In this document: piece after piece, positions 10,484-33,284 of the stretch
Numbering within the stretch: the stretch's first letter is position 1
How the letters are laid out: each line of letters begins with the position of its first letter
Assembly: GCA_019313605.1 (NCBI GenBank)
Contig: JAFDAW010000004.1
Span: forward strand, 1-34,503
DNA: 34,503 nt
Reading direction: 5' to 3'
From: Deltaproteobacteria bacterium
GTDB lineage: Bacteria > Myxococcota_A > UBA9160 > SMWR01
Notes under the pieces: generated by a model
The model's input: only the letters and a program-made list of their open reading frames with translations
Told to the model about the DNA's origin: nothing
The model's database searches: none
Translations under genes and position numbers: made by a program

Positions 10484-10592
10484 CTCGTGTGTGCGTGGCA
10501 GCTCGTCTGACCGGGGCTAGAGTCGGGGGCACGGATCATCTAAAGCGGGAGAAGTAGCGCTGCTCGAATGGATCTCCATCGCCATTCCAAGT

Positions 10593-10982
10593 TTGAACGC
10601 GTTGAGCGCGATATTGCTCTTGACCGCGTTTGCGGCGATTCGTCGGGGCGAACGCGAGAAACATCGCAATCTGATGCTGACGAATCTCGGCGTCTCGATC
10701 GTGTTTCTCGTCTGCTACGTGCTTCAGGTCTCTACGGTGGGTCACAAATCGTTCCCCGGAGACGATTGGGTGCGGGTGGTCTTCCTGACGATCCTCACGA
10801 CCCATACGATTCTCGCCGTTTGCCTCGTGCCTCTCGTGCTGCGAACGTTTTTCCTGGCCATTCGGCAGCGCTTCACCGAGCACCGGCGAATCGCCCGGAT
10901 CACCTTCCCAATCTGGCTTTACGTTTCCGTCACGGGTGTCGTGATCTACTGGATGGTGAATCACTTGCGGCCCTACGCGTGA
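10593..10982 (+). CDS. DUF420-family membrane protein (CtaM-like, associated with heme-copper oxidase maturation)
   Basis: 129 aa from a TTG start, four predicted TM helices. The pattern LNA.SAILLL.AF.AIRRGE...H...M is typical of DUF420. The frame stays open upstream to 10521 without a good start codon, so the N-terminus is uncertain. Confidence 0.7.
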   Translation: MNALSAILLLTAFAAIRRGEREKHRNLMLTNLGVSIVFLVCYVLQVSTVGHKSFPGDDWVRVVFLTILTTHTILAVCLVPLVLRTFFLAIRQRFTEHRRIARITFPIWLYVSVTGVVIYWMVNHLRPYA

Positions 10983-11001
10983 ATCGACGCGCTGGCTGAA
11001 A

Positions 11002-11445
11002 TCAGCGGAGGTCGGGGAACAACTCGACGCGCTGATCGGCTTTGGCCGCTTCTGCGACTTCGGCGAGATTCGAGTCGTTCGCCCAGTCTCGGAGGTGCTT
11101 GCTGAGTCGGCTCCACGTGCCGTGAAGTGGGCACGGAGTCACTTGATCGCAATTTCCCCAACCGAACGCGCAACGCCCTTCGGCTGGAAACGCGTCGATC
11201 GCGTCCAGGATTTCGATGAAGGGAATCTCGACAGGGGGGCGGGCGAGCGAAAAGCCTCCGCCCTGTCCTTTTCGCGAGACGAGCAGATTGGCGAGTACCA
11301 GGCGCCGCAGGATTTTGGACAGATAGGGGGCTGGAATTCCCGTAGCCTGCCCGAGATCGGTGGCGCGAATCTTTTTCCCCTCGGGGAGAATCGCAAGCGC
11401 CGACATGGCGCGAATCGCATATTCAGCGGTTTGGGAGATGAACAT
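11002..11445 (-). CDS. Rrf2-family transcriptional regulator (Fe-S type, NsrR/IscR-like), copy 1
   Basis: 147 aa from the ATG at 11445, preceded by GAGGAGcgacATG. wHTH signature MFISQTAEYAIRAM...YLSKILRRL. Cys cluster CAFGWGNCDQVTPCPLH (C-x6-C-x5-C-x2-H). The extra 17 N-terminal residues in the track ORF are Arg-rich and unlikely to be coding. Confidence 0.9.
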   Translation of the reverse strand: MFISQTAEYAIRAMSALAILPEGKKIRATDLGQATGIPAPYLSKILRRLVLANLLVSRKGQGGGFSLARPPVEIPFIEILDAIDAFPAEGRCAFGWGNCDQVTPCPLHGTWSRLSKHLRDWANDSNLAEVAEAAKADQRVELFPDLR

Positions 11446-11682
11446 GTCGCTCCTCGGCCGGCGCTGTACACGGCGCCGGATCCCTATCCCTACCATTATT
11501 GCACGCCAAAGTCATTAATGGACGTCGAAGTCGCCTGTTCCTGAACCGCCGTACGGCCGCACCTCCGCCAGCGCGCAATTGCCCCGAGTTCGGCGAGCCC
11601 CTACCTTGGTTTCCGATCCTCTTTTCTGGCCCCTCGTTCTGGGTGGCTAGGCCTTGACTGCCCCACCAGAGTTTTCTAAACA

Positions 11683-11710
11683 GACAAACAGATCTTTAGA
11701 TCCGTTTATC
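11683..11710. promoter_or_regulatory. Operator-like inverted repeat in the rrf2-1 / HCO divergent intergenic region
   Basis: GACAAACAGATC-TTTA-GATCCGTTTATC. Identical at 22 of 28 positions to the palindrome upstream of nirS (20321-20348). It lies just downstream of a possible promoter: TTGACT 11654-11659, 17-nt spacer, TAAACA 11677-11682. Confidence 0.5.
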
Positions 11711-11773
11711 GTTATCCGATATTGCGGGCCGAGGATCTGCTGTGCAGCACACCAACCCGCCTCGAGGATCGAG

Positions 11774-13219
11774 ATGAACGGTGCAAGGGAGTCCGCAATG
11801 CCCAACCGGCGCGTGCACGAATCGCAAAGTCGGTTGGAGCTGCAATGCGCGGGTCAGTGGTTGGGCCTCGCTCTCGGGGTGCTCACACTCGCGGGGCTGT
11901 TTTCGCTCGTCGTCGTCATCGGGCGAATGCCGCCTTTCGATCGCCTGGTCACCGATCCGCTCTTCTTCAAGCGCGGCCTCGTCGTGCACGTCAACCTCGC
12001 TCTGGTTGCGTGGTTCTACTCGTTCGTGGCTGCGTTGTTGTTCTTTCTGCCCGGCCGGTCGGCACCGAGCCGACTCGCCCGACACTCCGTGCACGTCAGC
12101 GCGCTCGGCGTCGCGATGATGTTGCTCGCGGCGGGCATGCCCGGAAGCCAACCCGTTCTCTCCAACTACATCCCGATGATCGATCACTGGTTGTTCGGCG
12201 TCGGGCAGGTCTTTTTTGCGGCGGGTGTCTTGACGAGTTTCATCAGCCGACGGCTTCTCACGGCGCGCACTGCAAGCGGCGGATTCTTCGAGATCCCGGG
12301 TGCCGCACAGATGGGCCTGCGGAGCACAGCAGTCGTGCTGGTACTGGCCGCGCTCACCTTTGCGATCACCTCCGTACGCATCACGCCGGACCTTCCCATC
12401 GACGTCTACTACGAGCTGCTCTTCTGGGGCGGCGGACACGTGCTGCAACTCTGCTGCAGCATCGCGATGATCTCGGTCTGGCTGATCCTGCTCCACTCAT
12501 CGTTGGGTCGCTCCCCGATCAGCGAAAGAGCTGCCGCAATCCTATTCGGTGCGATGGTGGTGCCGTGGCTCGCATCTCCGATCCTCGCAATGCTCGGAAC
12601 CTGGAGCCCGGGCTACCGCGACGGTTTCACCTTCCTGATGCGCTGGGCGATCTTTCCCGTGCTCGGCCTGTTCATGGTTGCGTGCTTTCGATTGCTGCTC
12701 GTGGAGTTTCGCGCCGGGCACATCGGCCTCCGGTCGCTCTCGGATCCGCGAATTTCCGGCTTTCTCGTCAGCGCGCTGCTGACGCTGCTCGGATTCGCGC
12801 TGGGTGCGGGCATTCGCGGCTCTAACACGATGATCCCCGCCCACTACCACGCCTCGATCGGCGGCATCACCGCGGCGTTCATGACCGTCACCTACGTGAT
12901 GTTGCGCGCGTTTGGATTTTCGATTTCAACGCGCCGGCTGCAGCGCGCGGCAGCCTGGCAGCCCGCCGTCTACGGAGTGGGGCAGATGGTCTTTGCGAGC
13001 GGCTTCGCGATCGCGGGGATCTACGGAATGTCGCGGAAGGCCTACGGCGCTGAGCAGGCCGGCCGCGGACTCGGCGAAAGCATCGGACTCGGCGTGATGG
13101 GCGTCGGCGGACTGGTCGCGGTCGGCGGCGGGCTTCTCTTCCTCGGGGTCGTTGCCAGCATCTGGCGGCAGGGATCCGAGAGGCGGATTCAAACACTCAA
13201 ACCGATCACCGAAGCCTGA
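11774..13219 (+). CDS. Divergent heme-copper-oxidase subunit-I-like membrane protein lacking the CuB His-His pair
   Basis: 481 aa from the ATG at 11774 (GAGGA 5 nt upstream; the ATG at 11798 is also possible). About 12 TM helices. HCO landmarks retained: helix II His (LVVHVNLALVAWF), helix VI His (LFWGGGHVLQ), helix X His pair (NTMIPAHYHASIGG). No HH motif at the helix VII position. Confidence 0.7.
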   Translation: MNGARESAMPNRRVHESQSRLELQCAGQWLGLALGVLTLAGLFSLVVVIGRMPPFDRLVTDPLFFKRGLVVHVNLALVAWFYSFVAALLFFLPGRSAPSRLARHSVHVSALGVAMMLLAAGMPGSQPVLSNYIPMIDHWLFGVGQVFFAAGVLTSFISRRLLTARTASGGFFEIPGAAQMGLRSTAVVLVLAALTFAITSVRITPDLPIDVYYELLFWGGGHVLQLCCSIAMISVWLILLHSSLGRSPISERAAAILFGAMVVPWLASPILAMLGTWSPGYRDGFTFLMRWAIFPVLGLFMVACFRLLLVEFRAGHIGLRSLSDPRISGFLVSALLTLLGFALGAGIRGSNTMIPAHYHASIGGITAAFMTVTYVMLRAFGFSISTRRLQRAAAWQPAVYGVGQMVFASGFAIAGIYGMSRKAYGAEQAGRGLGESIGLGVMGVGGLVAVGGGLLFLGVVASIWRQGSERRIQTLKPITEA

Positions 13220-13230
13220 AGGAGGTACGG

Positions 13231-13386
13231 ATGAGCTCGAAAGAGCCTGACGGAAAAAAACCGCTGCAGAAGCTGATGGACAACCCCTGGCTGCTGCTGG
13301 TCCTTGGAATCGTGATCCCCACCCTTTCCTACACGGTATGGGGTTGGATCGAATTGTGGCTGGTTCCGCCAGCCGCACTTCCCTGA
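13231..13386 (+). CDS. Small single-TM protein, candidate subunit IIa (CbaD-like) of the B-type HCO
   Basis: 51-aa ORF, below the track cutoff: MSSKEPDGKKPLQKLMDNPWLLLVLGIVIPTLSYTVWGWIELWLVPPAALP. GAAGGAGG lies 5-6 nt upstream of the ATG. Its position directly before subunit II matches the IIa-II-I order of ba3-type operons. Confidence 0.45.
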   Translation: MSSKEPDGKKPLQKLMDNPWLLLVLGIVIPTLSYTVWGWIELWLVPPAALP

Positions 13387-13402
13387 GCCGAGTGGAGGAA
13401 CC

Positions 13403-13927
13403 ATGAGTATCTACAACCCGCCCGAAGGATGGCTCCAAGCTCCGAAAGGGCCCGAACGCCTCTGGATCGGTCTCGCGCTCATCTGGTGCATCGTGATGTC
13501 GCTCGCGATGCCGTACTGGCACTTCTACGGCAAACAGAACGCTTCAGGCGAGTCCTACAGGGTTTCCGCCGTCGACTATGGCACCCGTGTCCGACAGTTC
13601 GTCGAAGCAAACACGGTCGGAGAGGCATCCGGCATCCCGATCGTCGAGATCCCGCCGGGCGGCGATGGCTATCTGCTCGCGCGGATGTGGAGCTTCTACC
13701 CGGTCATCAAGATGAAGATGGGGCAGACCTACCGCCTGCACATCTCATCGATGGACCTTCAACACGGCTTCTCGCTCCAGCCGCTGAACATGAACTTTCA
13801 GGTGCTACCGGGCTATGACCACGTGCTGACCATCACACCGACCAGCACGGGTGTCTTCCCGATCATCTGCAACGAATTCTGCGGAATCGGACATCACATG
13901 ATGACCGGCCGCATCATCGTCGAATAG
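13403..13927 (+). CDS. HCO subunit II with complete CuA centre
   Basis: 174 aa with one TM helix and a cupredoxin domain. All CuA ligands are present: H(GFS)-x34-CNEFCGIGHHMM, i.e. H...C-x3-C-x3-H-x2-M. GGAGG RBS. Confidence 0.9.
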   Translation: MSIYNPPEGWLQAPKGPERLWIGLALIWCIVMSLAMPYWHFYGKQNASGESYRVSAVDYGTRVRQFVEANTVGEASGIPIVEIPPGGDGYLLARMWSFYPVIKMKMGQTYRLHISSMDLQHGFSLQPLNMNFQVLPGYDHVLTITPTSTGVFPIICNEFCGIGHHMMTGRIIVE

Positions 13928-13936
13928 GAGACTCTC

Positions 13937-15658
13937 ATGGCCAGCGCAGTCGAAAGCCTTCCCATCTTGGGAAATCACCCGACCGATCAGGTCCGAGCCT
14001 GCGACACGACGACACTGCCGGTCTGTCTGACAGCCCAGAAGTTCATCAAGCTGCACGCGGTTGCAGCAGTCGTCTTCCTGTTGATCGGCGGAATCGCGGC
14101 GCTGACCCTCGGGCTGACCCGATGGCCCGCCGTGCATCTGCTCGACGCACAGTGGTATTACCGCCTGCTCACGCTCCACGGCCTCAACATGTTGATCTTC
14201 TGGATCCTCAATTTTGAGATTGCCGTGCTCTACTTTGCGTCAACCGTGCTCTTGAATACCCGGCTCGCTTCGAAGAGCGCCGCGTGGGTCGGTCTGGTGA
14301 TGATGACCGTCGGAGCGATCATGGTTGATGCGGCGATCTTCGGAGGCAAAAGCGATGTGCTGATGACCTCCTACGTTCCGCTCAAGGCGAGCCCGTGGTT
14401 CTACCTCGGGATCATCCTCGTCGCCGTCGGCACACTGGTGGGCGTGATCAACTACTTCGCGACGATCTACATCGCGAAGCGAGATCAAACCTACAAGGGT
14501 TCGGTGCCGCTGGTGGTCTTCGGCGCCACCGCCGCCGCAATCATCGCGGTCGTCACGCTGCTTCACGGTGCGGTCGTGATGATCCCGACCCTGCTTTGGT
14601 CAATGGGAATCATCGAAAATATCGATCCAGCGTGGTACCGGATTACCTGGTGGGGGCTCGGCCACATGTCCCAGCAGGTCAACGTCTGCGCGATGGTTTC
14701 GATCTGGTATCTGCTCGGAACGCTGACGGTCGGCTCCAAGCCCCTGAACCAGGCTGTTTGTCGCGGCGCCTTCGTGCTCTACATCCTCTTCATCAACGTC
14801 GCGTCCGCCCATCACCTGCTGGTGGACCCCGGAACCGGATCCGTCTGGAAGATCTGGAATACCTCCTACGCGATGTATCTCGCGGTGCTCGCGTCGATGA
14901 TTCACGGATTCACGGTGCCGGCTTCGATCGAAGTCGCGATGCGCAAGAAGGGCTTCAATCGGGGGCTCTTCGGTTGGCTTGCGAACGCCCCCTGGAGCAA
15001 TCCCGGATTCTCGGGCTTCTTCCTCTCACTCGTGATCTTCGGCTTCGGCGGAGGCATCACGGGCGTCACACTGGGCACGCAACAGATCAACATCATGGCC
15101 CACAACACGCTGCGCATCCCCGGTCACTTCCACGTGACGGTGGTCGGTGGCACGACGTTGGCCTTCATGGCGATCACCTACTACATCGTTCCGCTGATCT
15201 TCCAGAAGGACTTCTACGCAAAGGCACTGTGCCGAATCCAGCCCTATCTGTTTGGAGGTGGGATCACCTTGATGGCGCTCGGCATGTCGTTTGCGGGTTC
15301 CTATGGCGTGCCGCGCCGGCATTGGGACATCGAGTTCACGGGCGGCCTGTTCGCGACCGGATTCGACGCGGGTGCGCACGTGATGCTCGGGATCATGGGA
15401 GTCGGTGCGGTGATCGCGTTCCTCGGCTTGCTCCTCTACTGCCTGCTGGTCGTCGCGGCCGTGTTCTTCGGTCGCCCGGTCGAAGGCAAGCCGATGGAGG
15501 CCTGGAACGAAGAGCCGCGAGGACAGATCGACGCCGAGGAGGTGGACGAGCACAAGACGCCGGGCACCCTGGTAATCGTGTTCGTCTTCCTGACAGCGTT
15601 TGCGGTCTACTACTTCGCGAATTGGATGTGGCTCAGCGATCTCTGGGAGGTTCGCTAG
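13937..15658 (+). CDS. B-family-like heme-copper oxidoreductase subunit I with Tyr->Gln at the cross-link position (NO-reductase-like)
   Basis: 573 aa. Landmarks: H81 (LTLHGLNMLIFW), CuB H243 in WWGLGHMSQQVNV, H292/H293 (ASAHHLLVDPG), H397/H399 (HNTLRIPGHFHVTVVGG), and GLFGWLANAPWSNPGF as in ba3-type enzymes. The residue at H+4, Tyr in O2 reductases, is Gln247 (14675-14677). Confidence 0.9.
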   Translation: MASAVESLPILGNHPTDQVRACDTTTLPVCLTAQKFIKLHAVAAVVFLLIGGIAALTLGLTRWPAVHLLDAQWYYRLLTLHGLNMLIFWILNFEIAVLYFASTVLLNTRLASKSAAWVGLVMMTVGAIMVDAAIFGGKSDVLMTSYVPLKASPWFYLGIILVAVGTLVGVINYFATIYIAKRDQTYKGSVPLVVFGATAAAIIAVVTLLHGAVVMIPTLLWSMGIIENIDPAWYRITWWGLGHMSQQVNVCAMVSIWYLLGTLTVGSKPLNQAVCRGAFVLYILFINVASAHHLLVDPGTGSVWKIWNTSYAMYLAVLASMIHGFTVPASIEVAMRKKGFNRGLFGWLANAPWSNPGFSGFFLSLVIFGFGGGITGVTLGTQQINIMAHNTLRIPGHFHVTVVGGTTLAFMAITYYIVPLIFQKDFYAKALCRIQPYLFGGGITLMALGMSFAGSYGVPRRHWDIEFTGGLFATGFDAGAHVMLGIMGVGAVIAFLGLLLYCLLVVAAVFFGRPVEGKPMEAWNEEPRGQIDAEEVDEHKTPGTLVIVFVFLTAFAVYYFANWMWLSDLWEVR

Positions 15659-15691
15659 GCGGCCTCACGGCCCGACGGCCAAAATAAGGAG

Positions 15692-16630
15692 ATGGCAACT
15701 TCCCCCAAACGACTCGAGGTTTTTCAAAACCTTCTGACGGGAGCCACCTTTCCGGCGTTCGCGCTGTCGCTGCTCGCCTGCTGGGTGATCTTCTTGATCG
15801 CAATGCTGCTGGCTCCCTCCAGCGCAGCTGGTCTCGGTGCGTTTGCGGAGGACTTTCGGATCTGGTGCTTCGGCTACGACCCGGCAACGGGTCGCACCGA
15901 AGTCGGCTACGTGATGTCGATGATCCTTCCGCAGTTCATGATCGCGGGCTTCATCGCGTACTTCTGGTGGGAGCCGCTGCGTGAACTCGCGAATCAGCCG
16001 CTGCGCATCGCCCGCCACTTTGGAGCGGCAGCACTCCTGGTAGCGGCTTCATCCGTCGGCTTTGCGCTCACCGCAGAACAGTCGCTGAAGGGGGAGCTCC
16101 CGTTTCCCGCCGAAGAATTGCGCACCGCCTACGAGGCGCCGCAATTCGCGCTCACCAATCAGCTCCGAGAAACGGTCGGTCCCGCTGCGTTCGAGGGCAA
16201 CGTGGTCGTTCTCACGGCCGTCTACGCCTCCTGCCCTCACACCTGCCCCCTGATCTTGACGCAAGCCAAGGCGGCGATCGCGGAGCTCTCGCCCGAGGAA
16301 CGCGCAGACCTGCGGGTGATCGCGGTGACGATGGATCCGGAGAACGATTCTCCCGATGTGCTCCAGAAGCTGGCAGAAAATCACGGCATGGAATCGCCGC
16401 TCTACAATCTAGTGACGGGTGCTTCCGCCGACGTGGAGCCACTGCTCGATCGGATGGAGATCGCGCGCCAGCGCGACCCCGAAACCGGTATCATCAACCA
16501 CGCGAATCTATTCCTCCTGATCGATCGAGAAGGGCGAGTTGCGTATCGACTCGGACTGGGCGAACGCCAACAGCGTTGGCTCACATCCGCTCTCAGGGTT
16601 CTGCTCCGCGAAGAAGCGGCATCGGGGTAA
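15692..16630 (+). CDS. SCO1/SenC-family copper chaperone with a ~130-aa three-TM N-terminal extension
   Basis: 312 aa. Thioredoxin-fold domain with CPHTCP (CxxxC) and a downstream conserved His (IINHANLFLLID). Three hydrophobic helices precede it. Confidence 0.8.
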   Translation: MATSPKRLEVFQNLLTGATFPAFALSLLACWVIFLIAMLLAPSSAAGLGAFAEDFRIWCFGYDPATGRTEVGYVMSMILPQFMIAGFIAYFWWEPLRELANQPLRIARHFGAAALLVAASSVGFALTAEQSLKGELPFPAEELRTAYEAPQFALTNQLRETVGPAAFEGNVVVLTAVYASCPHTCPLILTQAKAAIAELSPEERADLRVIAVTMDPENDSPDVLQKLAENHGMESPLYNLVTGASADVEPLLDRMEIARQRDPETGIINHANLFLLIDREGRVAYRLGLGERQQRWLTSALRVLLREEAASG

Positions 16631-16633
16631 GAG

Positions 16634-18793
16634 ATGGCACCGCCGGATACCACGCGCACGCCACTCAGCGTAGAATCGACGGCGGGTGGCGCGGGCGCGC
16701 GGCCATCGTCCGTGCGGGGTGTCGAGGGCGCACCAAACGATTTCGAATCGCCGCCGAGTGAGTCGCCGCTGCCCAAAGGAATCCTGCGTCAACTCGACAA
16801 GGGCTTCATCTATCTCGATCGCCTGCTCGCGCGCTGCGTCTCCAGCTCGCTGAACCCGATGCTTCACACCGGCGCGATCGCGGTGACAGCACTGTTCATC
16901 GCGACGGTGTCGGGCATCGTGCTGCTGATCTGGTACAAGCCCAGCGTCCACATGGCCTACGAATCGCTCGATGCAATGTCGCGATCTCCGCTCGGGTCGG
17001 GCCTGGTGCGTTCACTGCATCGATACAGCTCCGATGCGGCGGTTCTCTTCGGCTTAATCCACGCGTTTCGGGTTTTCTTCGAGCGGCGCTTCGACGGTGC
17101 GCGTTGGCTCGCGTGGGTGACCGGGGCGATCATGATGGGGCTGCTCTGGTTCATCGGCTGGACGGGCTATTGGTTGGTCTGGGATCTGCGCGCCCAATCC
17201 GTCGCGGTCGGCAGCGCAAAGATGTTGGACGTGCTCCCCATATTCACCGATCCGCTGAGTCGCTCCTTCGTTACGGATGAGAGCGTCAATTCCCTGCTCT
17301 TCTTCGTGGTCTTCTTCATCCACATGATCATTCCGCTCGCGATGGTGGTCGTGATGTGGCTGCACATCACCCGCCTCGCGCGCGCCCGCTACCTGACCAG
17401 CAAGGTGATGACGATCTGGGTGGTGGCACTGTTGCTCTTGATCTCCATCGCGTATCCGGCGACCAACGAAGCCCCCGCTCAGATGACTGCAAATGCCGAA
17501 TACTTCACGATGGATTGGTGGTACCTCTTCCCGATGCCGCTCATCGATCGGCTGAGTGCGGGAGCACTCTGGGGTCTGCTGATCGTCGGAAGCGCGGTCT
17601 CACTCGCGATCCCCTGGTTGTTGGCGAAAAAGCGCAAGCGGCCCGCTTCGGTGGTCGCCTCGCGCTGCAACGAATGCAAGAAGTGTTATACGGATTGCCC
17701 TTACGAGGCGATCGAAATGGTCGCGCGCACGGACGGAAACGACCGCTACCTCACCCAGGCTTCGGTGATCGATTCCAAGTGCGTCGCGTGTGGCATTTGC
17801 GCGGGATCGTGTGACACGGTGGGGATCGGTCTGGACTGGTTCTCGAGCATCGAGCAGCGAAGACTCATCGAATCGTGGATGAAGCAGGCCGAGCAAGCGC
17901 GAGAAACCGTTCACCTCGCTTTCGTCTGCGCGGAATCCGCGGGGGCGAAACTCGAGATCGATCCAGTCACCGGCCTCTGTGCCGAACTTCCCGGCTACCG
18001 CGCGCTGCGCGTTCCGTGTGCGGGTTGGGTCCAGCCGCTGATGATCGAACGTGCAATCCGACAGGGAGCCAGCGGCGTGTTGGTCGTAAGCTGCCCGCCC
18101 GATCGATGCATGTACCGCGAAGGCGCCGAGTGGGAGCGCCAGCGAATCGAGGGCCTCCGCGAACCCGCACTGCGCGTCGACAAGCTCGAGCCTGGGCAGG
18201 TACAGCTCGTAGCGCTCGATCGCACGCGCAAGGCGGACCTGATTCGCACGGCAGAGCGTTTTCGCACGGGCGAAGAGTCGCTTCAGACCCCGAGCCGCCC
18301 GCGCGCTCTCCACGCGGTGTCGGCAACGGTCTTGCTGATCGCATGTGCGGGAATACTCGGCCTGGGGAGTGATTTCGGTTACACGGCGCCCGGCATCGAC
18401 GGTTCCGAGTTCGTCGTGAGCCTGAAGCACCCGGGCCTGGCCAGCGAGAACTGCCGTGACCTCACGCCGGAAGAACTCGCGTCGACACCCATCCATATGC
18501 GCAAGGAGCGTGTCTGCGAGCGGATGCGGCCACCCGTTCGCCTTCGAGTGACCATCGATGGCACCACTGCACTCGAGACCAGCATTGCGCCGTCGGGCAT
18601 CTGGGAGGACGGCAACAGCGTGGCCGTCGAACGAATTCCGGTCGAGCCGGGTGAGCACCGCGTGAGCGTGGCGATCGGCGAGACAGTGGACCCCGACGAG
18701 TGGAACTTCGGCGAGGAGCAGACGATCACCTTTACCGATGAATCCCGCCGCGTCGTCGTCTTCGACCGCGTCGCGGGCTTCACCTGGCACTGA
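16634..18793 (+). CDS. Fusion protein: di-heme cytochrome b + 2x[4Fe-4S] ferredoxin + MvhD/FlpD-like domain + TM helix + C-terminal domain of unknown function
   Basis: 719 aa. Cytochrome b signatures: two H-x13-H pairs (SLHRYSSDAAVLFGLIH and IHMIIPLAMVVVMWLH), WFIGWTGYWLVW, and a PEWYF-like MDWWYLFP. Then CNECKKCYTDCP ... CVACGICAGSC. Then an MvhD/FlpD-like segment (FVCAESAG...VPCAGWV...VVSCPPDRCMY). Then TM AVSATVLLIACAGILGLG and a ~150-aa tail. Confidence 0.8.
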   Translation: MAPPDTTRTPLSVESTAGGAGARPSSVRGVEGAPNDFESPPSESPLPKGILRQLDKGFIYLDRLLARCVSSSLNPMLHTGAIAVTALFIATVSGIVLLIWYKPSVHMAYESLDAMSRSPLGSGLVRSLHRYSSDAAVLFGLIHAFRVFFERRFDGARWLAWVTGAIMMGLLWFIGWTGYWLVWDLRAQSVAVGSAKMLDVLPIFTDPLSRSFVTDESVNSLLFFVVFFIHMIIPLAMVVVMWLHITRLARARYLTSKVMTIWVVALLLLISIAYPATNEAPAQMTANAEYFTMDWWYLFPMPLIDRLSAGALWGLLIVGSAVSLAIPWLLAKKRKRPASVVASRCNECKKCYTDCPYEAIEMVARTDGNDRYLTQASVIDSKCVACGICAGSCDTVGIGLDWFSSIEQRRLIESWMKQAEQARETVHLAFVCAESAGAKLEIDPVTGLCAELPGYRALRVPCAGWVQPLMIERAIRQGASGVLVVSCPPDRCMYREGAEWERQRIEGLREPALRVDKLEPGQVQLVALDRTRKADLIRTAERFRTGEESLQTPSRPRALHAVSATVLLIACAGILGLGSDFGYTAPGIDGSEFVVSLKHPGLASENCRDLTPEELASTPIHMRKERVCERMRPPVRLRVTIDGTTALETSIAPSGIWEDGNSVAVERIPVEPGEHRVSVAIGETVDPDEWNFGEEQTITFTDESRRVVVFDRVAGFTWH

Positions 18794-18803
18794 GGAGTTT
18801 GAG

Positions 18804-19724
18804 ATGAGCGCCGATTCTCGGGTTCACATCGCACTCGGTGATGCTCGCAGCCGCTTCGGTTGGCTCGCGCGCGTGCAAGATTACGTCGCGCTCACCCGGC
18901 CGCGGGTCTTGACGCTGGTTCTCTTCACCGCGCCGCCCGCGATGGTGATGGGCCACGAAGGCTGGCCGAGCGCGGCTGTGATCCTCGGCGTCATCTTCGG
19001 GGCTGCACTGATCGGCGCGGGCTGCGGGGCCCTGAACGCGAGTTGGGAACGCGATCGGGATCGTCGAATGGCGCGAACCGAGAACCGGCCGCTGCCGGCC
19101 GGGCGCCTGACACTGAGCGAAGCGGTGATTTTCGGCTTCGCAATTTCAGCGCTCGGCGTCGCAGTGCTATTCGCGGCCGGCGGTTGGCTACCGGCCGCAA
19201 TCGGCGTCTTGACGCTCGTCCACTACCTGTTGATCTACACCATCTGGCTCAAGCCGCGCACGCCGCAAAACATCGTGATCGGTGGGGCAGCCGGCGCCGC
19301 AAGCCCGTTGATCGCAGATGCGGCAATCGATGGCCGGCTCGGCCTCTGGGGTTTCGTTCTCTTCCTGATCGTGTTCGTCTGGACGCCGCCGCACTTCTGG
19401 GCAATTGCCTTGTACCGCAAGCGGGAGTACGCGGCTGCGGGCTTCCCGATGCTGCCCAATGTGCTGGGCGACCGCGCAACCCGCAAACACATGCTCGCCT
19501 ATGCGATCGGCCTGATCCCGGTCGCGCTGATCCCGTGGATCGGCGGCGAACTCAGCTTCGTTTACGCATTGACGGCGGTGATTGCAGGGGGCGGCTTCAT
19601 CGCGAGCATTGCGCGCTCGATGCGCGTCGAATCCCCCAAACAGGATCGGCGCGTCTTCAAGGTTTCGATCTTCTTCCTCTTCGCGATCTTCGCAGAGATG
19701 CTCGTCGAGTTGACGCTGCGTTGA
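18804..19724 (+). CDS. ctaB: Protoheme IX farnesyltransferase (heme O synthase)
   Basis: 306 aa from the ATG at 18804 (GAGGAG RBS). UbiA-family motifs are present (NASWERDRDRRMARTENRPLPAG; WTPPHFWAIALYRKREY). The track start at 18738 overlaps the upstream gene. Confidence 0.9.
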   Translation: MSADSRVHIALGDARSRFGWLARVQDYVALTRPRVLTLVLFTAPPAMVMGHEGWPSAAVILGVIFGAALIGAGCGALNASWERDRDRRMARTENRPLPAGRLTLSEAVIFGFAISALGVAVLFAAGGWLPAAIGVLTLVHYLLIYTIWLKPRTPQNIVIGGAAGAASPLIADAAIDGRLGLWGFVLFLIVFVWTPPHFWAIALYRKREYAAAGFPMLPNVLGDRATRKHMLAYAIGLIPVALIPWIGGELSFVYALTAVIAGGGFIASIARSMRVESPKQDRRVFKVSIFFLFAIFAEMLVELTLR

Positions 19725-19767
19725 TTTTCAGCTCCGCCACACGAACCCGCCGAGTCCGAGTCCGGCC

Positions 19768-20157
19768 CTAATCCGAACTGGGCGGTGATCCGGACTTCGC
19801 GTCTTTGATCGGAGGATCGGTGGCGTGCTCCAGCAGTGAGCCGTCTGCCGCGTATCGATAGGTGTCTTCGCGGATGACATCGCCGCGTTTGTATTCGAGA
19901 CAGCGGACGACGCGTTCGATTTCGTCGTAGAGAACTTCGTAGTAGCGGTAGAGCTTGAAAACCTCTTCGTAGTTTCGCTCGACGCCGATGTCCCGTACGG
20001 GGCCGCTTTCGACTAATTCATCCGAGTAGTAGGAGACTCCGGCGCGGCTCGTTTCGGGGCGAGCCGATGCAGGGACGGCCAGCGCGCAAGGGGCCAATAC
20101 CAGGCCGGCGGCCAGGGCCGCTCTCAAACTCAAAAAGGCCGAATTCAGTCGATTCAT
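19768..20157 (-). CDS. Small secreted protein of unknown function
   Basis: 129 aa from the ATG at 20157 (GGAG 9 nt upstream). Signal peptide MNRLNSAFLSLRAALAAGLVLAPCALAVPASA. The mature part is Tyr/Glu/Arg-rich, and I recognise no family. Confidence 0.5.
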   Translation of the reverse strand: MNRLNSAFLSLRAALAAGLVLAPCALAVPASARPETSRAGVSYYSDELVESGPVRDIGVERNYEEVFKLYRYYEVLYDEIERVVRCLEYKRGDVIREDTYRYAADGSLLEHATDPPIKDAKSGSPPSSD

Positions 20158-20318
20158 TTTCGGATTCTCCACGCTGTATCAACATGGGATGATTCGCATA
20201 TACCGGCCACTGGTTCACAGCAATAATCGGCCCCGCGGGGCATCCAGATCATCTAACCACGTGAAACGCACGCTCAAGCGTTTAGAGCACGATTCCGCTT
20301 TAGATTAGCCCAAATTAT

Positions 20319-20350
20319 TCGATAAAAAGATCTAGAGATCTTTTTATCGA
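20319..20350. promoter_or_regulatory. Perfect 15-2-15 inverted repeat upstream of nirS (candidate Rrf2 operator)
   Basis: TCGATAAAAAGATCT-AG-AGATCTTTTTATCGA. It is AT-rich in a high-GC genome and lies 178 nt upstream of the nirS ATG. The core GATAAAAAGATC-N4-GATCTTTTTATC resembles 11683-11710. Confidence 0.6.
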
Positions 20351-20527
20351 GAAGCTAGCATCGAAAGATTGACGGAGCCCCATGCGTCCCCTCGACGGCC
20401 GCGGACGTGGCTCCATTCGAGCCCTCCGTGGGGGTTCGAGACTTAATGAAATGGCGTCGCTCATTGGGTTCGTCAGCCGCGAGAGTCGCGGCCAGCGACC
20501 CGGCAGTTCGGTCGAGGAGGAGAATTC

Positions 20528-22189
20528 ATGAGGCGTGTTCGCGCTTCGGTTCATCGATTGTCGCAACAGCCCGATTGGTACAAAGCGTTTCCGGGAATTC
20601 ACTGGCTCGTACTGATCAGCTTGACGTTCGTGCTGGCCGGCACCGCGCCCGCCGCAACGGCTCCCACTCTGAGCGAAAAAGAGATGGCGGACGCGGAGTT
20701 CATCTACTTCGACCGCTGCTCGGGATGTCACGGTGCGCTGCGCAAGGGAGCGACCGGGCCGAACATCGCTGACGAAGCCATGCTCAAGAAGCCGCTCAGC
20801 GAACTCGAGACGACCATCTTCGAAGGCACCGACGCGGGCATGCCGGGCTGGGGCCGAACCGGCGAACTCACCACCGAAGAGTCGGCGCTGATGGCCAGGT
20901 ATGTGCAGATTCCCGCTCCGACACCGCCCGAGATGGGGCTCAAGGCCATGAAGGCGACCCACAAGCTCTACGTGCCGGTGGCGGATCGCCCGAGTAAACC
21001 CCAACACAAGCGGGACATCGAAAACTACTTCGGAGTCATCCTGCGCGATGTTGGCCAGGGCGCGATCATCGACGGCGACACCAAGGAACTCGTCAGCATC
21101 CACGAAACTGGGCACGCCGTCCACATCTTTCGCGCTTCTGCGACCGGCCGCTACTTCTACACGATCGGGCGCGACGGCAAGGTCACGCTGATAGATCTCT
21201 ACGAGAAGAAGCCGAAGGTCGTCGCCGAATCCCGCGTGTGTCTGGACGCGCGTTCGATCGAAGTTTCGAAGTACAAAGGACCCAAGGGCGACTTCGTCGA
21301 CAAGTACGCGCTGGTGGGTTGTTACTGGCCGCCGCAGATGGTGGTGCTCGACGGGCAAACCCTGGAACCAATCAAGGTCATCTCGACCCGGTCTTCAACC
21401 TACGACACCAACGAGTATCACCCGGAGCCGCGCGTAGCGACGATCATCGCATCCCACCACGCACCCGAGTGGGTCGTCGCGATCAAGGAAACGGGCATGG
21501 TCTGGTTGGTGGATTACTCCGACCTGAACAACCTGAGCATGACCCAGATCGCAACCGAGCGATTCCTACACGACGGAGGTTTCGACGCGACGGGACGCTA
21601 TCTGCTGATCGCCGCCAACATGCGCGACCAGATGGTCGTCGTCGACACCAAGGAGCGGAAGTTCGTCACCAAGTTCGAGACGGGCACCAAGCCGCATCCC
21701 GGCCGCGGAGCCAACTGGGTCGATCCCGAGTACGGACCGGTCAGCGCGACCACCCACCTGGGTGAGGGCATGATCGTCGTATACGGATCGGATCCCGAGG
21801 GCCATCCGGAGCACGCCTGGAAGGTGGTGCGCGAAGAGGAGACCGGAGGACCCGGACTTTTCTTGAAGACCCATCCCAAGAGCGACTACATCTGGACCGA
21901 TGCCACGCTCTCCAAGGAAGAGGGCGCCAATCAGCAGATCTGCGTGTTCAAGAAGGCCGACTTCGCTGCGGGCGCTCATTGTTGGCAGGCCGCCGATCAC
22001 GGGAAGGTCGTGCACTTCGAATACAACAAGGCGGGCGACGAAGTCTGGGCCGCCGTCTGGGACAAAGAAGGTGAGCTGATCATCTACGACGACAAGACGC
22101 TGAAAGAGAAGGCACGAATCAAGGCGGATTGGTTGGTCACACCGACGGGCAAGTGGAACGTCTACAACACGGTTCACGACATCTACTAA
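20528..22189 (+). CDS. nirS: Cytochrome cd1 nitrite reductase
   Basis: 553 aa. Strong RBS (GAGGAGGAG), signal peptide, heme c site FDRCSGCHGALRKGATGPNI, then a d1-type eight-bladed propeller domain. Confidence 0.95.
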   Translation: MRRVRASVHRLSQQPDWYKAFPGIHWLVLISLTFVLAGTAPAATAPTLSEKEMADAEFIYFDRCSGCHGALRKGATGPNIADEAMLKKPLSELETTIFEGTDAGMPGWGRTGELTTEESALMARYVQIPAPTPPEMGLKAMKATHKLYVPVADRPSKPQHKRDIENYFGVILRDVGQGAIIDGDTKELVSIHETGHAVHIFRASATGRYFYTIGRDGKVTLIDLYEKKPKVVAESRVCLDARSIEVSKYKGPKGDFVDKYALVGCYWPPQMVVLDGQTLEPIKVISTRSSTYDTNEYHPEPRVATIIASHHAPEWVVAIKETGMVWLVDYSDLNNLSMTQIATERFLHDGGFDATGRYLLIAANMRDQMVVVDTKERKFVTKFETGTKPHPGRGANWVDPEYGPVSATTHLGEGMIVVYGSDPEGHPEHAWKVVREEETGGPGLFLKTHPKSDYIWTDATLSKEEGANQQICVFKKADFAAGAHCWQAADHGKVVHFEYNKAGDEVWAAVWDKEGELIIYDDKTLKEKARIKADWLVTPTGKWNVYNTVHDIY

Positions 22190-22274: not shown

Positions 22275-22922
22275 ATGGTTTCCAAAAGCGTTTCTGACCG
22301 CAGGCTGATCCGCCCGTTTCTCGGCCGCTCCGCGATGGGCTTTGCTCTTCTGGTACTCGCGTTTCTGATTCCGAATTGGGCTACCGCCAATGGACAGCAC
22401 GCTTTCGTTGGCTACCAGAAGTGCAGGACCTGCCATAAGAAGACAGAGATCGGCAATCAATACGGCGCCTGGCTCGAATCCAGACACGCGAAGGCCTACG
22501 AGACGCTCGGAACCGAGAAGGCGAAGAAGTGGGGCGCCGAAGCCGGCGTAGACAATCCCCAAACTGACGACCGCTGCATCAAGTGTCATTCGACGGCTCA
22601 CGGCGTTCCGGACGAAAGGGTCTCGAGGAAATTCGATCGGACGGCCGGCGTGCAATGCGAGTCGTGCCACGGCGCGGGTAAGGACTACAAGAAGAAGAAG
22701 ATCATGATGGACCGCGACAAGGCGCTCGAGAAAGGCCTGATCATACCGACCGCGGAACTCTGCACCGGATGCCACAACGACGAGAGTCCCGCATGGGATG
22801 AGAAGGCCTACACGCTGACCGATGGAAGCACGGCCGGATTCGACTTCGAGCAGGCAGTGAAAAAGATCGCTCACCCAGTTCCCGAAGGCTACGATCCAAG
22901 CGCTACTGGAGGGGCTGACTGA
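22275..22922 (+). CDS. Periplasmic tetraheme c-type cytochrome (c554-like family)
   Basis: 215 aa. AGGAGG RBS, signal peptide, four CxxCH motifs (CRTCH, CIKCH, CESCH, CTGCH). Confidence 0.8.
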   Translation: MVSKSVSDRRLIRPFLGRSAMGFALLVLAFLIPNWATANGQHAFVGYQKCRTCHKKTEIGNQYGAWLESRHAKAYETLGTEKAKKWGAEAGVDNPQTDDRCIKCHSTAHGVPDERVSRKFDRTAGVQCESCHGAGKDYKKKKIMMDRDKALEKGLIIPTAELCTGCHNDESPAWDEKAYTLTDGSTAGFDFEQAVKKIAHPVPEGYDPSATGGAD

Positions 22923-22924
22923 GA

Positions 22925-23545
22925 ATGGCGGGCGACGATCACGATTTAGACGGCGATCGTCACCCTCCCATTCAGCTCACGATCTGGGCGGTGATCGCTC
23001 TCGCGGTCGTCGTCATCGCGGGGCTCTTCACGGTTCGACTCGAGCACCAGCCCGAGACGACACGCGACTATCCGCCCCGGCCGCAGATCGCGGACGGCGA
23101 GGCGATCCTGCTGCCTGCTCCCGAGATCCTCGATGACTATCTGCCCTGCAACGACTGCCATGACGATGTGACACGAGAAGAGGGGCCGGTCCCGCGCGAA
23201 CTCGAATTCGAACACGAAGACACGAAGCTCGCGCATGGAAACCTCTGGTGCCGGCACTGCCACGACGCCGTGGACCCGAACAACCTCCGCCTGGCTGACG
23301 CGTCTTTGGTTCCTTTCGAAGACTCCTGGAAGCTCTGCACCCAATGTCACGGCAAGAAGCTTCCGGAGTGGCGCGCGGGGGTTCATGGCAAGGTGACCGG
23401 AAATTGGAGGGGCGATCGGGAGTACGTGACCTGCGTCTTCTGCCACGAGCCCCATACACCGCCGTTCGTGCCCATCGAAGGAGAGCCGAGGCCCAGGCGC
23501 CCCGAGGAAATCGTATTGCGGACAGAGCCCCTAGGAGAAGAGTGA
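22925..23545 (+). CDS. Membrane-anchored tetraheme c-type cytochrome (cytochrome c3/ActA/NrfB-like partner of the NrfCD-type module)
   Basis: 206 aa. N-terminal TM helix LTIWAVIALAVVVIAGLFTV. Four CxxCH motifs (CNDCH, CRHCH, CTQCH, CVFCH). It lies immediately upstream of the NrfC-like gene. Confidence 0.75.
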   Translation: MAGDDHDLDGDRHPPIQLTIWAVIALAVVVIAGLFTVRLEHQPETTRDYPPRPQIADGEAILLPAPEILDDYLPCNDCHDDVTREEGPVPRELEFEHEDTKLAHGNLWCRHCHDAVDPNNLRLADASLVPFEDSWKLCTQCHGKKLPEWRAGVHGKVTGNWRGDREYVTCVFCHEPHTPPFVPIEGEPRPRRPEEIVLRTEPLGEE

Positions 23546-23546
23546 A

Positions 23547-24415
23547 GTGGGAATTTTCAGACGGAACAAAGAAGCGCGAGCGCCGAAAGATGGCGCACCG
23601 AAGGAAAGCTCGCGCCGCGACTTCCTCAAGACAGCTGCGACCGTCGGAGCGGGAGCCGCGGTTGGCGCGCCCGCCATCGCGAGCGCGATGGATTTCGACT
23701 TCGAAACCTTCATGCAAAAGAACTTCCGCGAGCTCTCGGATGAGGAGCTGCAAGGGGTCATCGAGCGACTCGAGCGCAAGTACTCGGATAAGTACGGCAA
23801 GGACGTCAGCATGTCGGCCATCGGTCCGATGGACGGCGTGCTCTACGGCTACGGGTTGGACATCTCACGCTGCATCGGTTGCCGGAAATGCGTGTCCGCG
23901 TGCGTGGTTATTACGAGCACAAGGAGGTTCCCGCAGAGGGGAAGTTCTACGTCCCGATCGCCTGCCAGCAATGCGAGGATGCGCCGTGTACTACGGTCTG
24001 CCCGACTGGCGCGACCTGGCAAGAATCCGACGGGATCATCGTGATCGACTACGACTGGTGCATTGGGTGTCGCTACTGCATGGCGGCGTGCCCCTACGGC
24101 GCGCGCCACTTCAACTGGGGCGAGCCCAATCTTCCGGCTGAAGACGTCAACCCGAACATGCACATCCTTGGCAACAAGCCGCGCACGCGAGGCGTGGTCG
24201 AGAAATGCACGTTCTGTATCCAACGGGTGCGCGAGGGCCGCATGCCGGCTTGCCACGAAGCCTGCCCGGTCGGCGCGCGCAAGTTCGGAAACCTGCTCGA
24301 TCCGGATAGCGAAATCCGATACCTGCTGGACCACAAGCGGACCTTCGTATTGAAAGCAGAGCTCGAGACCCACCCGAAGTTCTTCTATTTCTGGGGAACG
24401 GAGGGGCGGAGTTGA
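23547..24415 (+). pseudogene. NrfC/PsrB/ActB-like Tat-exported 4x[4Fe-4S] protein with a frame disruption near 23904-23908
   Basis: The frame-0 ORF (23547-24044) gives the Tat signal SRRDFLKTAATVGAGAAV and cluster 1, [11 protein letters not shown]. The remaining clusters ([30 protein letters not shown]...CHEACP) are in the frame-2 ORF (23879-24415). Total length is 869 nt (3n+2), so one nucleotide appears to be missing. Confidence 0.8.
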
Positions 24416-24461
24416 GGCAGCAGCGAGAATCCGTTCGAACGGCGCGACTTCGAGGGGCATC

Positions 24462-25706
24462 GTGCTGATCCGCAACCTGAAGCTCTTCGCCCACTTCGTC
24501 AGAGGAAGCCTTCTCGCTGTCGCCAGCGGTAGCAGGGGTTACTACATCTGGCTGCTGGCATTGGGGATCCTGATCGCGCTCGGCGCGACCGCATATGGCA
24601 ATCAGCTCACCCACGGACTGATCACTTCACACATGCGCGACCAGGTTTCCTGGGGATTCTACATCGGAAATTTCGCGTTTCTGGTCGGGGTGGCGGCGGC
24701 AGCCGTCGTTCTGGTCGTTCCCGCCTACGTCTACAATTGGGGACCGATCCGCGACGTCGTCTTGATTGGCGAGTTGGCTTCAGTTGCGGCGATCGTCATG
24801 TGCATGCTCTTCGTCACGGTAGACCTCGGTCGGCCCGAGTTCGTCTGGCATCTGATGCCGATCGTCGGAACACCGAACTTCCCGCACTCGCTGCTGACCT
24901 GGGACATTCTCGTCCTGAATCTCTATTTCCTGCTCAACTGGTTCGTCGTCACCTACATCCTGTTCACGGCCTTCAAGGGCCGAAAATACAACCCGCGAAT
25001 CTTGTTGCCGATCATCTTCCTCTCGATTCCGTTCGCGATCGGAATCCACACCGTGACGGCGTTTCTCTTCACGGGCCTCAAGGGCCGCGCCTTCTGGCAC
25101 ACCGCTTTGCTGGCGCCTCGCTTCATCGCGGGTGCGTTCTGCTCGGGGCCCGCATTGATCTTCTTGATCTTCCGGGTGCTGCGAAAGTTCGGCCGAATGC
25201 AGATTTCGGACACGGCGCTCTTCAAGATCGGCGAATTGCTCGCCTACGCGATGGCGATCAATCTGTTCTTCGTCGGGACGGAAGTCTTCACCGAATTCTA
25301 CGCCCAGACTGCCCACACCGTTCACGCCCGCTACCAGTGGTTCGGACTCCACGGAATGTCGAGCATCGCCATCTACACCTGGGCCGCGCTCTGCTTCAAT
25401 GTGCTGGCCTTGATCATCTTCATGGTGCCGAAATTCAGGCTCAACATGAACATCCTCACTTTGGGTTGCGTATTCTCGTTTTCCGGGATCTACATCGAAA
25501 AGGGAATGGGACTACTGCTGCCGGGATTCACACCGGACTCACTGGGGGAAATCTACGAGTACACACCGAGCCTGAACGAGGTGACGGTCGGCATCGGCAT
25601 CTGGGCCGTCGGAGCGTTGCTCTTCACATGGATGGCGCGAGTCGCGATCGCCATCACGGCCGGTGACCTGCGCCACGCGACTGTGAGTCGGCAAATCGGG
25701 CCCTAG
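24462..25706 (+). CDS. NrfD/PsrC/ActC-family integral membrane quinone-interacting subunit
   Basis: 414 aa from a GTG start (GAGGGG upstream). About 10 TM helices with an N-terminal region typical of the NrfD family (YYIWLLALGILIALGATAYGNQLTHGL..SHMRDQVSWGFYIGNFAF). Confidence 0.85.
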   Translation: MLIRNLKLFAHFVRGSLLAVASGSRGYYIWLLALGILIALGATAYGNQLTHGLITSHMRDQVSWGFYIGNFAFLVGVAAAAVVLVVPAYVYNWGPIRDVVLIGELASVAAIVMCMLFVTVDLGRPEFVWHLMPIVGTPNFPHSLLTWDILVLNLYFLLNWFVVTYILFTAFKGRKYNPRILLPIIFLSIPFAIGIHTVTAFLFTGLKGRAFWHTALLAPRFIAGAFCSGPALIFLIFRVLRKFGRMQISDTALFKIGELLAYAMAINLFFVGTEVFTEFYAQTAHTVHARYQWFGLHGMSSIAIYTWAALCFNVLALIIFMVPKFRLNMNILTLGCVFSFSGIYIEKGMGLLLPGFTPDSLGEIYEYTPSLNEVTVGIGIWAVGALLFTWMARVAIAITAGDLRHATVSRQIGP

Positions 25707-25713
25707 CAGGATG

Positions 25714-26163
25714 CTAGGGGTCGCTCGGTTTCGCGAAGCGGCGAACGAAGGCGACCATGTGCCAGATCTTGTCATCCGTCCAGGCGTAATCGGACTCTGG
25801 ACCAAACGCGGGCATCGCGCAGCGCTCCCCGCCGCCCATCAAGATCTGGTAGAAGAGTTCTCCATCGGTTCGGCTCGCCATGTATTTGGCATCCGTCAAG
25901 TTTGCGGGCCTGACGAGTTCGCCGGACGCGGCCGCCTCGGCGCCGCTACCCGTCCCATCGATCCCGTGGCAACGGGAGCACTTTCCCTTGAATTGCCGCT
26001 GGTAGTAGCGGATCTCGCTCTCTTCTAGCGTCACCGGATTCTTCGCGGCCTTCACGTCGTCGGGTACGTCATCTCGAGCGGATACGGTGGTGCACGCGAT
26101 TCCGGCGAACCAGGTTGTCAGGGCGAACGCTGCGAAGCACTGAACGGCGCTGCTCTTCGACAT
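25714..26163 (-). CDS. Monoheme class I c-type cytochrome (NirC/c55x-like)
   Basis: 149 aa with a signal peptide, a single CSRCHG heme site and a distal Met region CAMPAFG. GGAGGA RBS. It lies 27 nt downstream of nirN on the same strand. Confidence 0.7.
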   Translation of the reverse strand: MSKSSAVQCFAAFALTTWFAGIACTTVSARDDVPDDVKAAKNPVTLEESEIRYYQRQFKGKCSRCHGIDGTGSGAEAAASGELVRPANLTDAKYMASRTDGELFYQILMGGGERCAMPAFGPESDYAWTDDKIWHMVAFVRRFAKPSDP

Positions 26164-31385: not shown

Positions 31386-31485
31386 ATAGACTAGGGGCTC
31401 TCGCCTCGGGATCGAGCGCTACCGCCGAGCCCCGGACCGCGAGATGGACGGCACCGCAGCCTCCAACGACGCCGCGAGGAGAACG

Positions 31486-31929: not shown

Positions 31930-31933
31930 GGGA

Positions 31934-32503: not shown

Positions 32504-32516
32504 TTGGAGGCTCGTC

Positions 32517-33176: not shown

Positions 33177-33284
33177 AAGGGTGTCGCCCAACGACCTCCG
33201 GGTCTTGGTACTCGTGATGGGGGCTGTGTGCGAATGCGCAGACCCATCGTTGACGGAACGTAAGAGACCTAAACGGAAGGGACG

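Follow-up and report, generated by a model that had tools for sequence, protein, structure and literature searches.

The heme-copper oxidoreductases (HCOs) that reduce O2 and those that reduce nitric oxide (NO) can be told apart at one active-site position, which holds Tyr in the O2 reductases, Glu in the NO reductases (NORs) cNOR and qNOR, Asn in sNOR and Gln in eNOR, a family with one predicted proton channel (PMC8756737, Table A4, after Hemp & Gennis 2008). The eNOR family has been described since 2008 (Hemp & Gennis) and was validated biochemically in 2024, when the purified Rhodothermus marinus enzyme was found to reduce NO at 0.68 per second but, given several donors, not O2 (Murali et al. 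2024; PMC11214002). These are respiratory enzymes, and their product, N2O, is a greenhouse gas. Here, we analyse a stretch of 34,503 nucleotides (contig JAFDAW010000004.1 of a Deltaproteobacteria bacterium; the whole stretch is called the window), in which three genes at 13231-15658 very probably encode the subunits of an eNOR-family enzyme that would convert 2 NO to N2O as a step of denitrification, with the nitrite reductases NirS and NirK supplying the NO. The enzyme type is already described and widespread, and the window provides a further eNOR from a Myxococcota-like lineage of metagenome-assembled genomes (MAGs).

Several related systems frame the comparison. The active site of bNOR is the same as that of sNOR; gNOR has a metal-site His replaced by Asp and is without CuA; and nNOR combines a cNOR-type site (three His, one Glu) with His/Met ligands on the low-spin heme (PMC11214002). 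Both eNOR and bNOR keep a K-channel like that of the ba3-type oxidase, including a Ser at position S309, and some eNORs ligate the low-spin heme by His/Lys (PMC11214002). The R. marinus eNOR uses heme As, which is expected of the family in both heme sites, and the O2-dependent CtaA is encoded in many eNOR operons. A common eNOR operon comprises subunit II, subunit I, heme o synthase, sco1 and a 'scaffold protein', and in Ferrigenium genes for a cytochrome b-iron-sulfur (FeS) system adjoin the eNOR (Ferrigenium preprint, 10.64898/2026.01.22.701106). Closest to eNOR, by one report, is the 'K' family of O2 reductases, with which it clusters (10.1101/592808). Finally, Thermus thermophilus NAR1 lacks norCBH, and a review speculated that oxidase-like genes upstream of nsrRST reduce NO instead (PMC7694296).

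Active site and family assignment

The three open reading frames (ORFs) of 13231-15658 were confirmed on the forward strand, with intergenic gaps of 16 and 9 bases. The first (13231-13386, 51 aa) encodes a single-helix small subunit, IIa-like by position; the second (13403-13927, 174 aa; Pfam COX2 1.4e-6) encodes subunit II, with an N-terminal helix and a CuA cupredoxin domain; and the third (13937-15658, 573 aa; Pfam COX1 1.4e-64) encodes the catalytic subunit I of eNOR type. Homologs of the 51-aa ORF occur in 74 distinct sequences with one hydrophobic helix and the consensus Q...DNPWLLL.LG...P..SYT.WG..E, and given this conservation it is a real gene; by position and size its product is a putative counterpart of ba3 subunit IIa.

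Among solved structures, the ba3 subunit I chains of T. thermophilus (PDB 1EHK, 1XME, 3S8F) are the best matches to subunit I by sequence (E ~1e-42) and the second best by fold, behind Aquifex aeolicus 7DEG. An AlphaFold model of subunit I (predicted local distance difference test, pLDDT, 75; predicted template modelling score, pTM, 0.81) matches the B-family structures 7deg and 1ehk at ~1e-17 to 1e-16, A-family structures at 1e-11 and the cNOR structure 4xyd at 2.6e-10, a confirmation at the level of fold; neither the sequence nor the fold search with subunit I found an eNOR structure in the PDB. The window and Thermus ba3 share the gene order of small subunit, subunit II and subunit I, the CuA site and all six canonical His, where ba3 H72/H233/H282/H283/H384/H386 correspond to H81/H243/H292/H293/H397/H399. 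By this mapping H81, H397 and H399 are heme ligands, and H243, H292 and H293 form the metal site. The motifs that the original prediction had listed for ba3 (LTLHG, YxPLK, WWxGH, HHxxDPG, GLFGW...PWxNP and HNT...PGHFH) are all present in the alignment, and its central claim, the loss of the cross-linked Tyr, is borne out: ba3 Y237 aligns with Gln247, codon CAG at 14675-14677.

The residue before it is also Gln (Gln246, where ba3 has V236), so that the two codons span 14672-14677 on the forward strand. This QQ pair is found in 86/86 related loci examined, within the motif H-x-x-Q-Q-(V/I)-N. Across 80 distinct, well-aligned sequences H81, H243, Q246, Q247, N249, Y258, H292, H293, S320, H323 and T326 are at least 97% conserved, as are E332, H397, H399, R460 and R461. 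We looked in the same 80 sequences, at the level of sequence only, for a Tyr that might have migrated: neither the canonical position four residues after the metal-site His (H+4) nor Ile286, at the C-family position six residues ahead of the HH pair, holds a conserved Tyr. The conserved Tyr residues of subunit I are Y75, Y146, Y156, Y234, Y258, Y282, Y311, Y314 and Y416; of these, Y258 belongs to the K-channel and Y282 stands ten residues ahead of the HH pair.

In the published key, eNOR is diagnosed by a Gln at the Tyr site (PMC8756737, Table A4). The original prediction had taken loss of this Tyr as the hallmark of NORs derived from the B-family, had called for scoring against family-specific residues and had left the exact subfamily unassigned. 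Judged by the per-family residues given in PMC8756737 (Table A4) and in the main texts of the cited papers, subunit I carries the residues expected of eNOR, and each of the other families fails at a defining residue. Sequence, fold, phylogeny and genomic context together support a NOR derived from the B-family, now assigned to eNOR. With that family the window shares a B-family-derived subunit I, three metal-site His, Gln for Tyr, a CuA subunit II, K-channel-like residues including the Ser at ba3 S309, and a heme o synthase and sco1 in the operon. NO reductase activity is predicted for the window enzyme from its homolog. In annotations, members of the family routinely pass for cytochrome c oxidase or cbb3 subunit I. 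NCBIfam contains no eNOR model, and all of its oxidase equivalogs score far below their cut-offs with subunit I.

The other families were considered in turn and rejected. A ba3-type B-family O2 reductase is at odds with Gln247 at the cross-linked Tyr site and with a position outside the ba3 clade, and sNOR and bNOR are at odds with Gln rather than Asn at that site. bNOR (qCuANOR, Bacillus azotoformans) and sNOR do resemble the window enzyme in their B-family-like origin, their homologs of CuA-type subunit II and their K-region channels; they differ in the Asn, and sNOR is without the S309-type Ser (PMC8756737, Table A4; PMC11214002). gNOR is excluded by His at all of H243, H292 and H293 and by intact CuA ligands, and nNOR by Gln where cNOR and qNOR have Glu and by the low-spin heme ligands His81 and His399. 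cNOR and qNOR themselves, which have a C-family-related subunit I with a Glu-containing FeB site, a cytochrome c subunit or a quinol site, and no CuA, were set aside since no such chain appears among the PDB sequence matches at E <1e-3, the fold match to cNOR is 2.6e-10 against ~1e-17 to 1e-16 for B-family chains, and the partner subunit is a CuA protein.

Relatives and phylogeny

Relatives of subunit I are numerous: over 8000 protein clusters score below 1e-20. The best 120 of these share 74-94% identity, and the names they carry are mostly 'cytochrome c oxidase subunit 1' or 'cbb3-type'. When genomes were scanned, one per species, at least 566 proved to contain a relative. The closest among the matches listed are Deltaproteobacteria/Myxococcota MAGs (75-95% identity), followed by Leptospiraceae, Verrucomicrobiota/Opitutales, Rhodothermales, Planctomycetota, Nitrospirota and others. 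For comparison of loci we took the 80 closest from the genome scan, all MAGs and all at least 56% identical, and added plasmid loci. The plasmid relatives, all with the QQ pair, come from Defluviimonas (53% identity), Thermomicrobium roseum (45%) and the denitrification megaplasmids of T. thermophilus (44%). Among 50%-identity representatives, identity drops to 35-43% in the next relatives of full length, and several of them carry a Tyr as GHxxQY (P0123, P0127, P0128, P0143).

We built a neighbour-joining tree on p-distances (486 columns, 100 bootstraps), in which the 27 Gln-bearing sequences form one clade with 100% bootstrap support, the tree being drawn without curated HCO family or eNOR references. 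This clade contains the window protein, MAGs, Thermus, Thermomicrobium, Defluviimonas and a haloarchaeal-like sequence. The canonical B-family clade, which includes Thermus ba3, is separate and Tyr-bearing, likewise with 100% bootstrap. The original prediction had said that a place inside the O2-reducing B-family with a compensating Tyr would refute it; the window protein instead falls in the Gln-bearing clade and has no Tyr at H+4 or at the C-family position. Nearest to this clade are the GHxxQY sequences, which share the GHxxQ of eNOR, keep the Tyr and probably belong to the O2-reducing K family; their place in the tree fits the reported clustering of K family and eNOR (10.1101/592808).

The oxidase-like 'CbcBA' genes on the megaplasmid of T. 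thermophilus NAR1, upstream of nsrRST, have the same QQ motif and fall in the same clade at 44% identity. The NAR1 subunit I gene (L006 8983-10668, plasmid) lies between nirS/nirK and the nsrR operon. It differs from the window in having Lys as low-spin ligand (HFK rather than HFH), which makes it the His/Lys variant described for some eNORs, and in having none of the SCO1, heme o synthase, subunit-I paralog and cytochrome b fusion genes alongside that accompany the window enzyme (see below).

A further set of representatives (P0166, P0171, P0180, P0227, P0254) forms a distinct clade with 100% bootstrap support, with H-x-x-H-Y in helix VI and Y-H in place of H-H in helix VII.

Probable electron entry and proposed proton path

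The best PDB matches of subunit II are B-family subunit II chains and CuA domains (2.8e-14 to 1e-12). It had been predicted to retain every CuA ligand, and alignment to these chains agrees: H121, C156, E158 (the backbone position), C160, H164 and M167 are all kept, in HGF...CNEFCGIGHHMM. The ligands and Glu18, at the position of ba3 II-E15, are at least 95% conserved across 79 sequences, with Glu18 present in 79/79. Conservation of the full set of CuA ligands is read most simply as electrons arriving from a periplasmic carrier. A c-type cytochrome or cupredoxin would reduce the CuA of subunit II, from which electrons would pass to the low-spin heme (His81/His399) and on to the high-spin heme (His397) and the non-heme metal (His243/His292/His293). 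A candidate periplasmic donor is encoded in the window itself at 25714-26163 (reverse strand), as a monoheme cytochrome c of 149 aa whose N-terminus is signal-like and which carries a CSRCH motif.

With Gln247 in place of the redox-active Tyr, we propose that no fourth electron would be available for O2 reduction, while two-electron NO reduction would be possible. The original prediction of a K-type proton channel stands for most of the ba3 positions and fails for some. Four are kept and at least 97% conserved, namely S309 (Ser320), T315 (Thr326), Y248 (Tyr258) and E15 of subunit II (Glu18). Three have changed: T312 is a conserved His (His323), Y244 is Val254 and S261 is Asn271, so the path is only partly identical to that of ba3, with which subunit I shares ~25-27% identity in fold alignments. 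These sequences support a B-family-type channel in the window enzyme, in which cytoplasmic protons would travel via subunit II Glu18, Thr326, His323, Ser320, Tyr258 and Gln247/Gln246. Uptake of protons from the cytoplasm would make turnover electrogenic.

Companion genes in the operon

The three genes are part of a longer, tightly packed operon, which reads subunit-I paralog, small subunit, subunit II, subunit I, SCO1, a cytochrome b/FeS/MvhD fusion and heme o synthase. The SCO1/SenC copper chaperone (15692-16630, forward strand; Pfam SCO1-SenC 1.2e-21) is presumably the loader of CuA, and follows subunit I in 65/69 loci with enough downstream sequence. The heme o synthase (CtaB/CyoE; 18804-19724, forward strand, start taken from the alignment with locus L001) scores 281 bits against the NF003349 cut-off of 246.

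Immediately upstream of the small subunit, the paralog (11774-13219, forward strand; 481 aa from the ATG at 11774; Pfam COX1 1.8e-10) is a relative of subunit I from which the HH pair is missing. BLASTP between the two gives 27% identity (E 4e-21) and hhalign a probability of 99.7%, and the AlphaFold2 model of the paralog (pLDDT 84) has ba3 subunit I as best fold match. Two of the three metal-site His are gone, while both heme-ligand positions, the Arg/Lys pair, the first metal-site His and the equivalent of Gln246 are kept; H112, H262, Q265, H397, H399, R461 and K462 are conserved in 56 family members. The paralog adjoins the eNOR in 54/66 loci with enough flank, and its homologs are named 'hypothetical protein' or misnamed cbb3 subunit I. 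A literature search for an HCO paralog without CuB found no description. The protein would be a heme-only relative of the HCOs, possibly with a role in NO binding, assembly or electron transfer.

The fusion gene (16634-18793, forward strand; 719 aa; Pfam/NCBIfam) joins a di-heme cytochrome b of the N-terminal type, a 4Fe-4S dicluster domain, an FlpD/MvhD domain, one helix and a C-terminal domain of ~140 aa, and is present in 58/60 loci with enough downstream sequence. Its C-terminal domain is homologous to a separate 172-aa gene on the Defluviimonas plasmid (L004 13985-14503). This domain would be periplasmic. By the positive-inside rule, applied to the sequence, the 4Fe-4S and MvhD domains would be cytoplasmic. 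The fusion could link the quinone pool or a cytoplasmic reductant either to eNOR turnover or to its maturation, for example heme modification without CtaA. No CtaA was found in the window, as distinct from the many eNOR operons that carry one, and it is absent from 87/89 loci searched; the exceptions are a fused CtaA-CtaB in Thermomicrobium and locus L043.

The upstream CuB-less paralog and the fusion thus distinguish the window's clade from the eNOR family as described, and we tentatively suggest that the eNOR of this subclade works with these two undescribed partners from the same operon. The catalytic unit might then be larger than subunits I, II and the small subunit, with paralog, fusion or both acting, for instance, as a quinol-linked electron module, as a heme maturation system that replaces O2-dependent CtaA, or as an NO-binding hemoprotein. 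We regard this as a possibility, and the less likely side of the question. It draws on the frequency with which both genes accompany the eNOR, on the place of the paralog as first gene after a candidate operator (described below), on a distant paralog (P0229) that also sits beside a QQ-type subunit I, on the scarcity of CtaA, and on the cytochrome b-FeS genes beside the Ferrigenium eNOR (10.64898/2026.01.22.701106). Against it, the paralog is missing from the Defluviimonas, Thermomicrobium, Thermus and Rhodothermales-type loci, and Thermus and Thermomicrobium are without the fusion as well, so neither gene is essential for eNOR catalysis in general; moreover, the FeS and MvhD domains would face the cytoplasm, away from CuA. 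An eNOR of three subunits remains our preferred reading.

Denitrification context and proposed regulation

Downstream of the eNOR operon lies nirS, which encodes cytochrome cd1 nitrite reductase as a source of NO (20528-22189, forward strand; Pfam Cytochrom_D1 3.7e-122 and a cytochrome c domain), together with heme d1 genes (NirN/F-like, NirJ and NirD/L-type). The copper nitrite reductase NirK is encoded at 33285-34418 (forward strand; TIGR02376 461 bits, cut-off 296). Two Rrf2 regulators are present. The first, NsrR-like, is divergent from the operon (11002-11496, reverse strand; Pfam Rrf2 9.3e-25), with a C-x6-C-x5-C cluster motif and a score of 29 bits where the NsrR equivalog cut-off is 182; the second (31444-31929, forward strand; Pfam Rrf2 3e-28) is 63% identical to it. 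The setting of nirS, nirK and NsrR-like regulators, which had been read as fitting NO reduction, is upheld, with the heme d1 genes in addition.

A 30-bp imperfect palindrome, AGACAAACAGATCTTTAGATCCGTTTATCG, lies at 11682-11711, 63 bp upstream of the paralog, and is a candidate operator. A perfect 14-2-14 palindrome, CGATAAAAAGATCTAGAGATCTTTTTATCG, lies at 20320-20349, ~180 bp upstream of nirS. The consensus of the two, CGATAAAnAGATCTnnAGATCynTTTATCG, has these two matches in the window, where 0 are expected by chance. The same palindrome precedes the paralog gene in L001 and L011, in L001 between divergent nirS and operon, and a site identical to CGATAAAAAGATCTAGAGATCTTTTTATCG occurs in L007 at the position matching that of nirS in the window. 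A palindrome common to the eNOR operon and nirS, recurring in relatives, argues for their co-regulation. The two Rrf2 regulators are predicted to bind it as operator, and the operon is probably derepressed by NO in this way. The exact core is absent from more distant loci, which makes the palindrome lineage-specific and no operator of the whole family.

Several points weigh against the eNOR assignment or its role. The case for NO reductase activity, here as in close relatives, is one of homology, and we infer metal identity, heme type, proton path and regulation on similar grounds. The tree is a neighbour-joining tree on p-distances, not a maximum-likelihood one, and includes no curated family references. 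Rhodothermus, the source of the characterised enzyme, is absent from the 120 matches listed (67-100% identity) when a profile of Rhodothermales/Bacteroidetes MAGs is searched against a set of 5.8 billion proteins, the best cultured organism in this search being Fodinibius halophilus. Two ba3 K-channel positions, T312 and Y244, differ, which leaves proton delivery a proposal. The lack of CtaA in the window contrasts with the heme As of the R. marinus eNOR and bears on both heme type and oxygen dependence. Finally, nirS or nirK lies within 8 kb in only 17/84 related loci (20%).

The last of these observations, together with the replaced K-channel residues, would suit an enzyme of eNOR type that serves NO detoxification or signalling, with a K-channel analog that does not deliver cytoplasmic protons and a turnover that is non-electrogenic, as in cNOR. 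The low turnover of the R. marinus eNOR (PMC11214002) and an NsrR-like repressor typical of NO-stress regulons point the same way. We consider such a role improbable: Ser320, His323, Thr326, Tyr258 and Glu18 of subunit II remain at least 97% conserved between distant phyla, which is hard to explain otherwise than by a function along the path, the related bNOR is electrogenic with the same channel type (PMC11214002), and the window holds a full NO-producing apparatus. Least probable of all, and very unlikely in our view, is an O2 reductase of the B-family or K family that does without the canonical Tyr or draws one from elsewhere: the nearest non-Gln relatives keep Tyr, the overall fold is ba3-like, and heme o synthase and the oxidase-type assembly gene SCO1 stand alongside, but Gln247 is invariant in 80 sequences that have no conserved Tyr at H+4 or at Ile286, the clade is set apart from Tyr-bearing sequences, the characterised eNOR is no O2 reductase (PMC11214002), and the gene sits in a nirS/nirK cluster with an operator-like palindrome shared with nirS.

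Read as a respiratory eNOR, the three genes give this Myxococcota-like lineage, once correctly named, a complete nitrite-to-N2O module of NirS, NirK and eNOR, and an added case in which NO reduction may conserve energy. Because eNORs are usually annotated as cytochrome c oxidase, denitrifiers and sources of N2O are under-counted. Of more use as a lead is the conserved architecture of the operon, in which paralog and fusion travel with eNOR across several phyla; together with the palindrome, they offer handles on modified heme synthesis at low oxygen and on the electron source of eNOR.

Other features of the window

A sigma-70 promoter scan gave no match in 10900-20600, and terminator-like matches are at chance level. 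Next to the first Rrf2 gene, a DUF420 (CtaM-like) membrane protein is encoded at 10542-10982 (forward strand; start codon uncertain), recognised by tblastn with the DUF420 protein of L001 (62.5%, E 3e-54), which itself matches Pfam DUF420 at 4.9e-39. DUF420 accompanies the eNOR operon in several relatives, and also a distant paralog (P0253, L087) on a short contig without eNOR.

Multiheme cytochromes and an NrfD-type quinol module occupy 22275-25706. Within this region, an NrfC-like 4Fe-4S protein exported by twin-arginine translocation (TAT) is encoded at 23547-24415 (forward strand), but its gene runs over two reading frames and changes from one to the other near 23909-23936. The L001 homolog is intact at 324 aa, and the split in the window is a frameshift mutation or an assembly error. 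At 31444-34418 (forward strand), the second Rrf2 gene is followed by a gene for a 189-aa protein without a family match, a second SCO1/SenC gene and nirK, so that nirS as well as nirK is present in the window, and each has a separate Rrf2 gene and SCO gene nearby.

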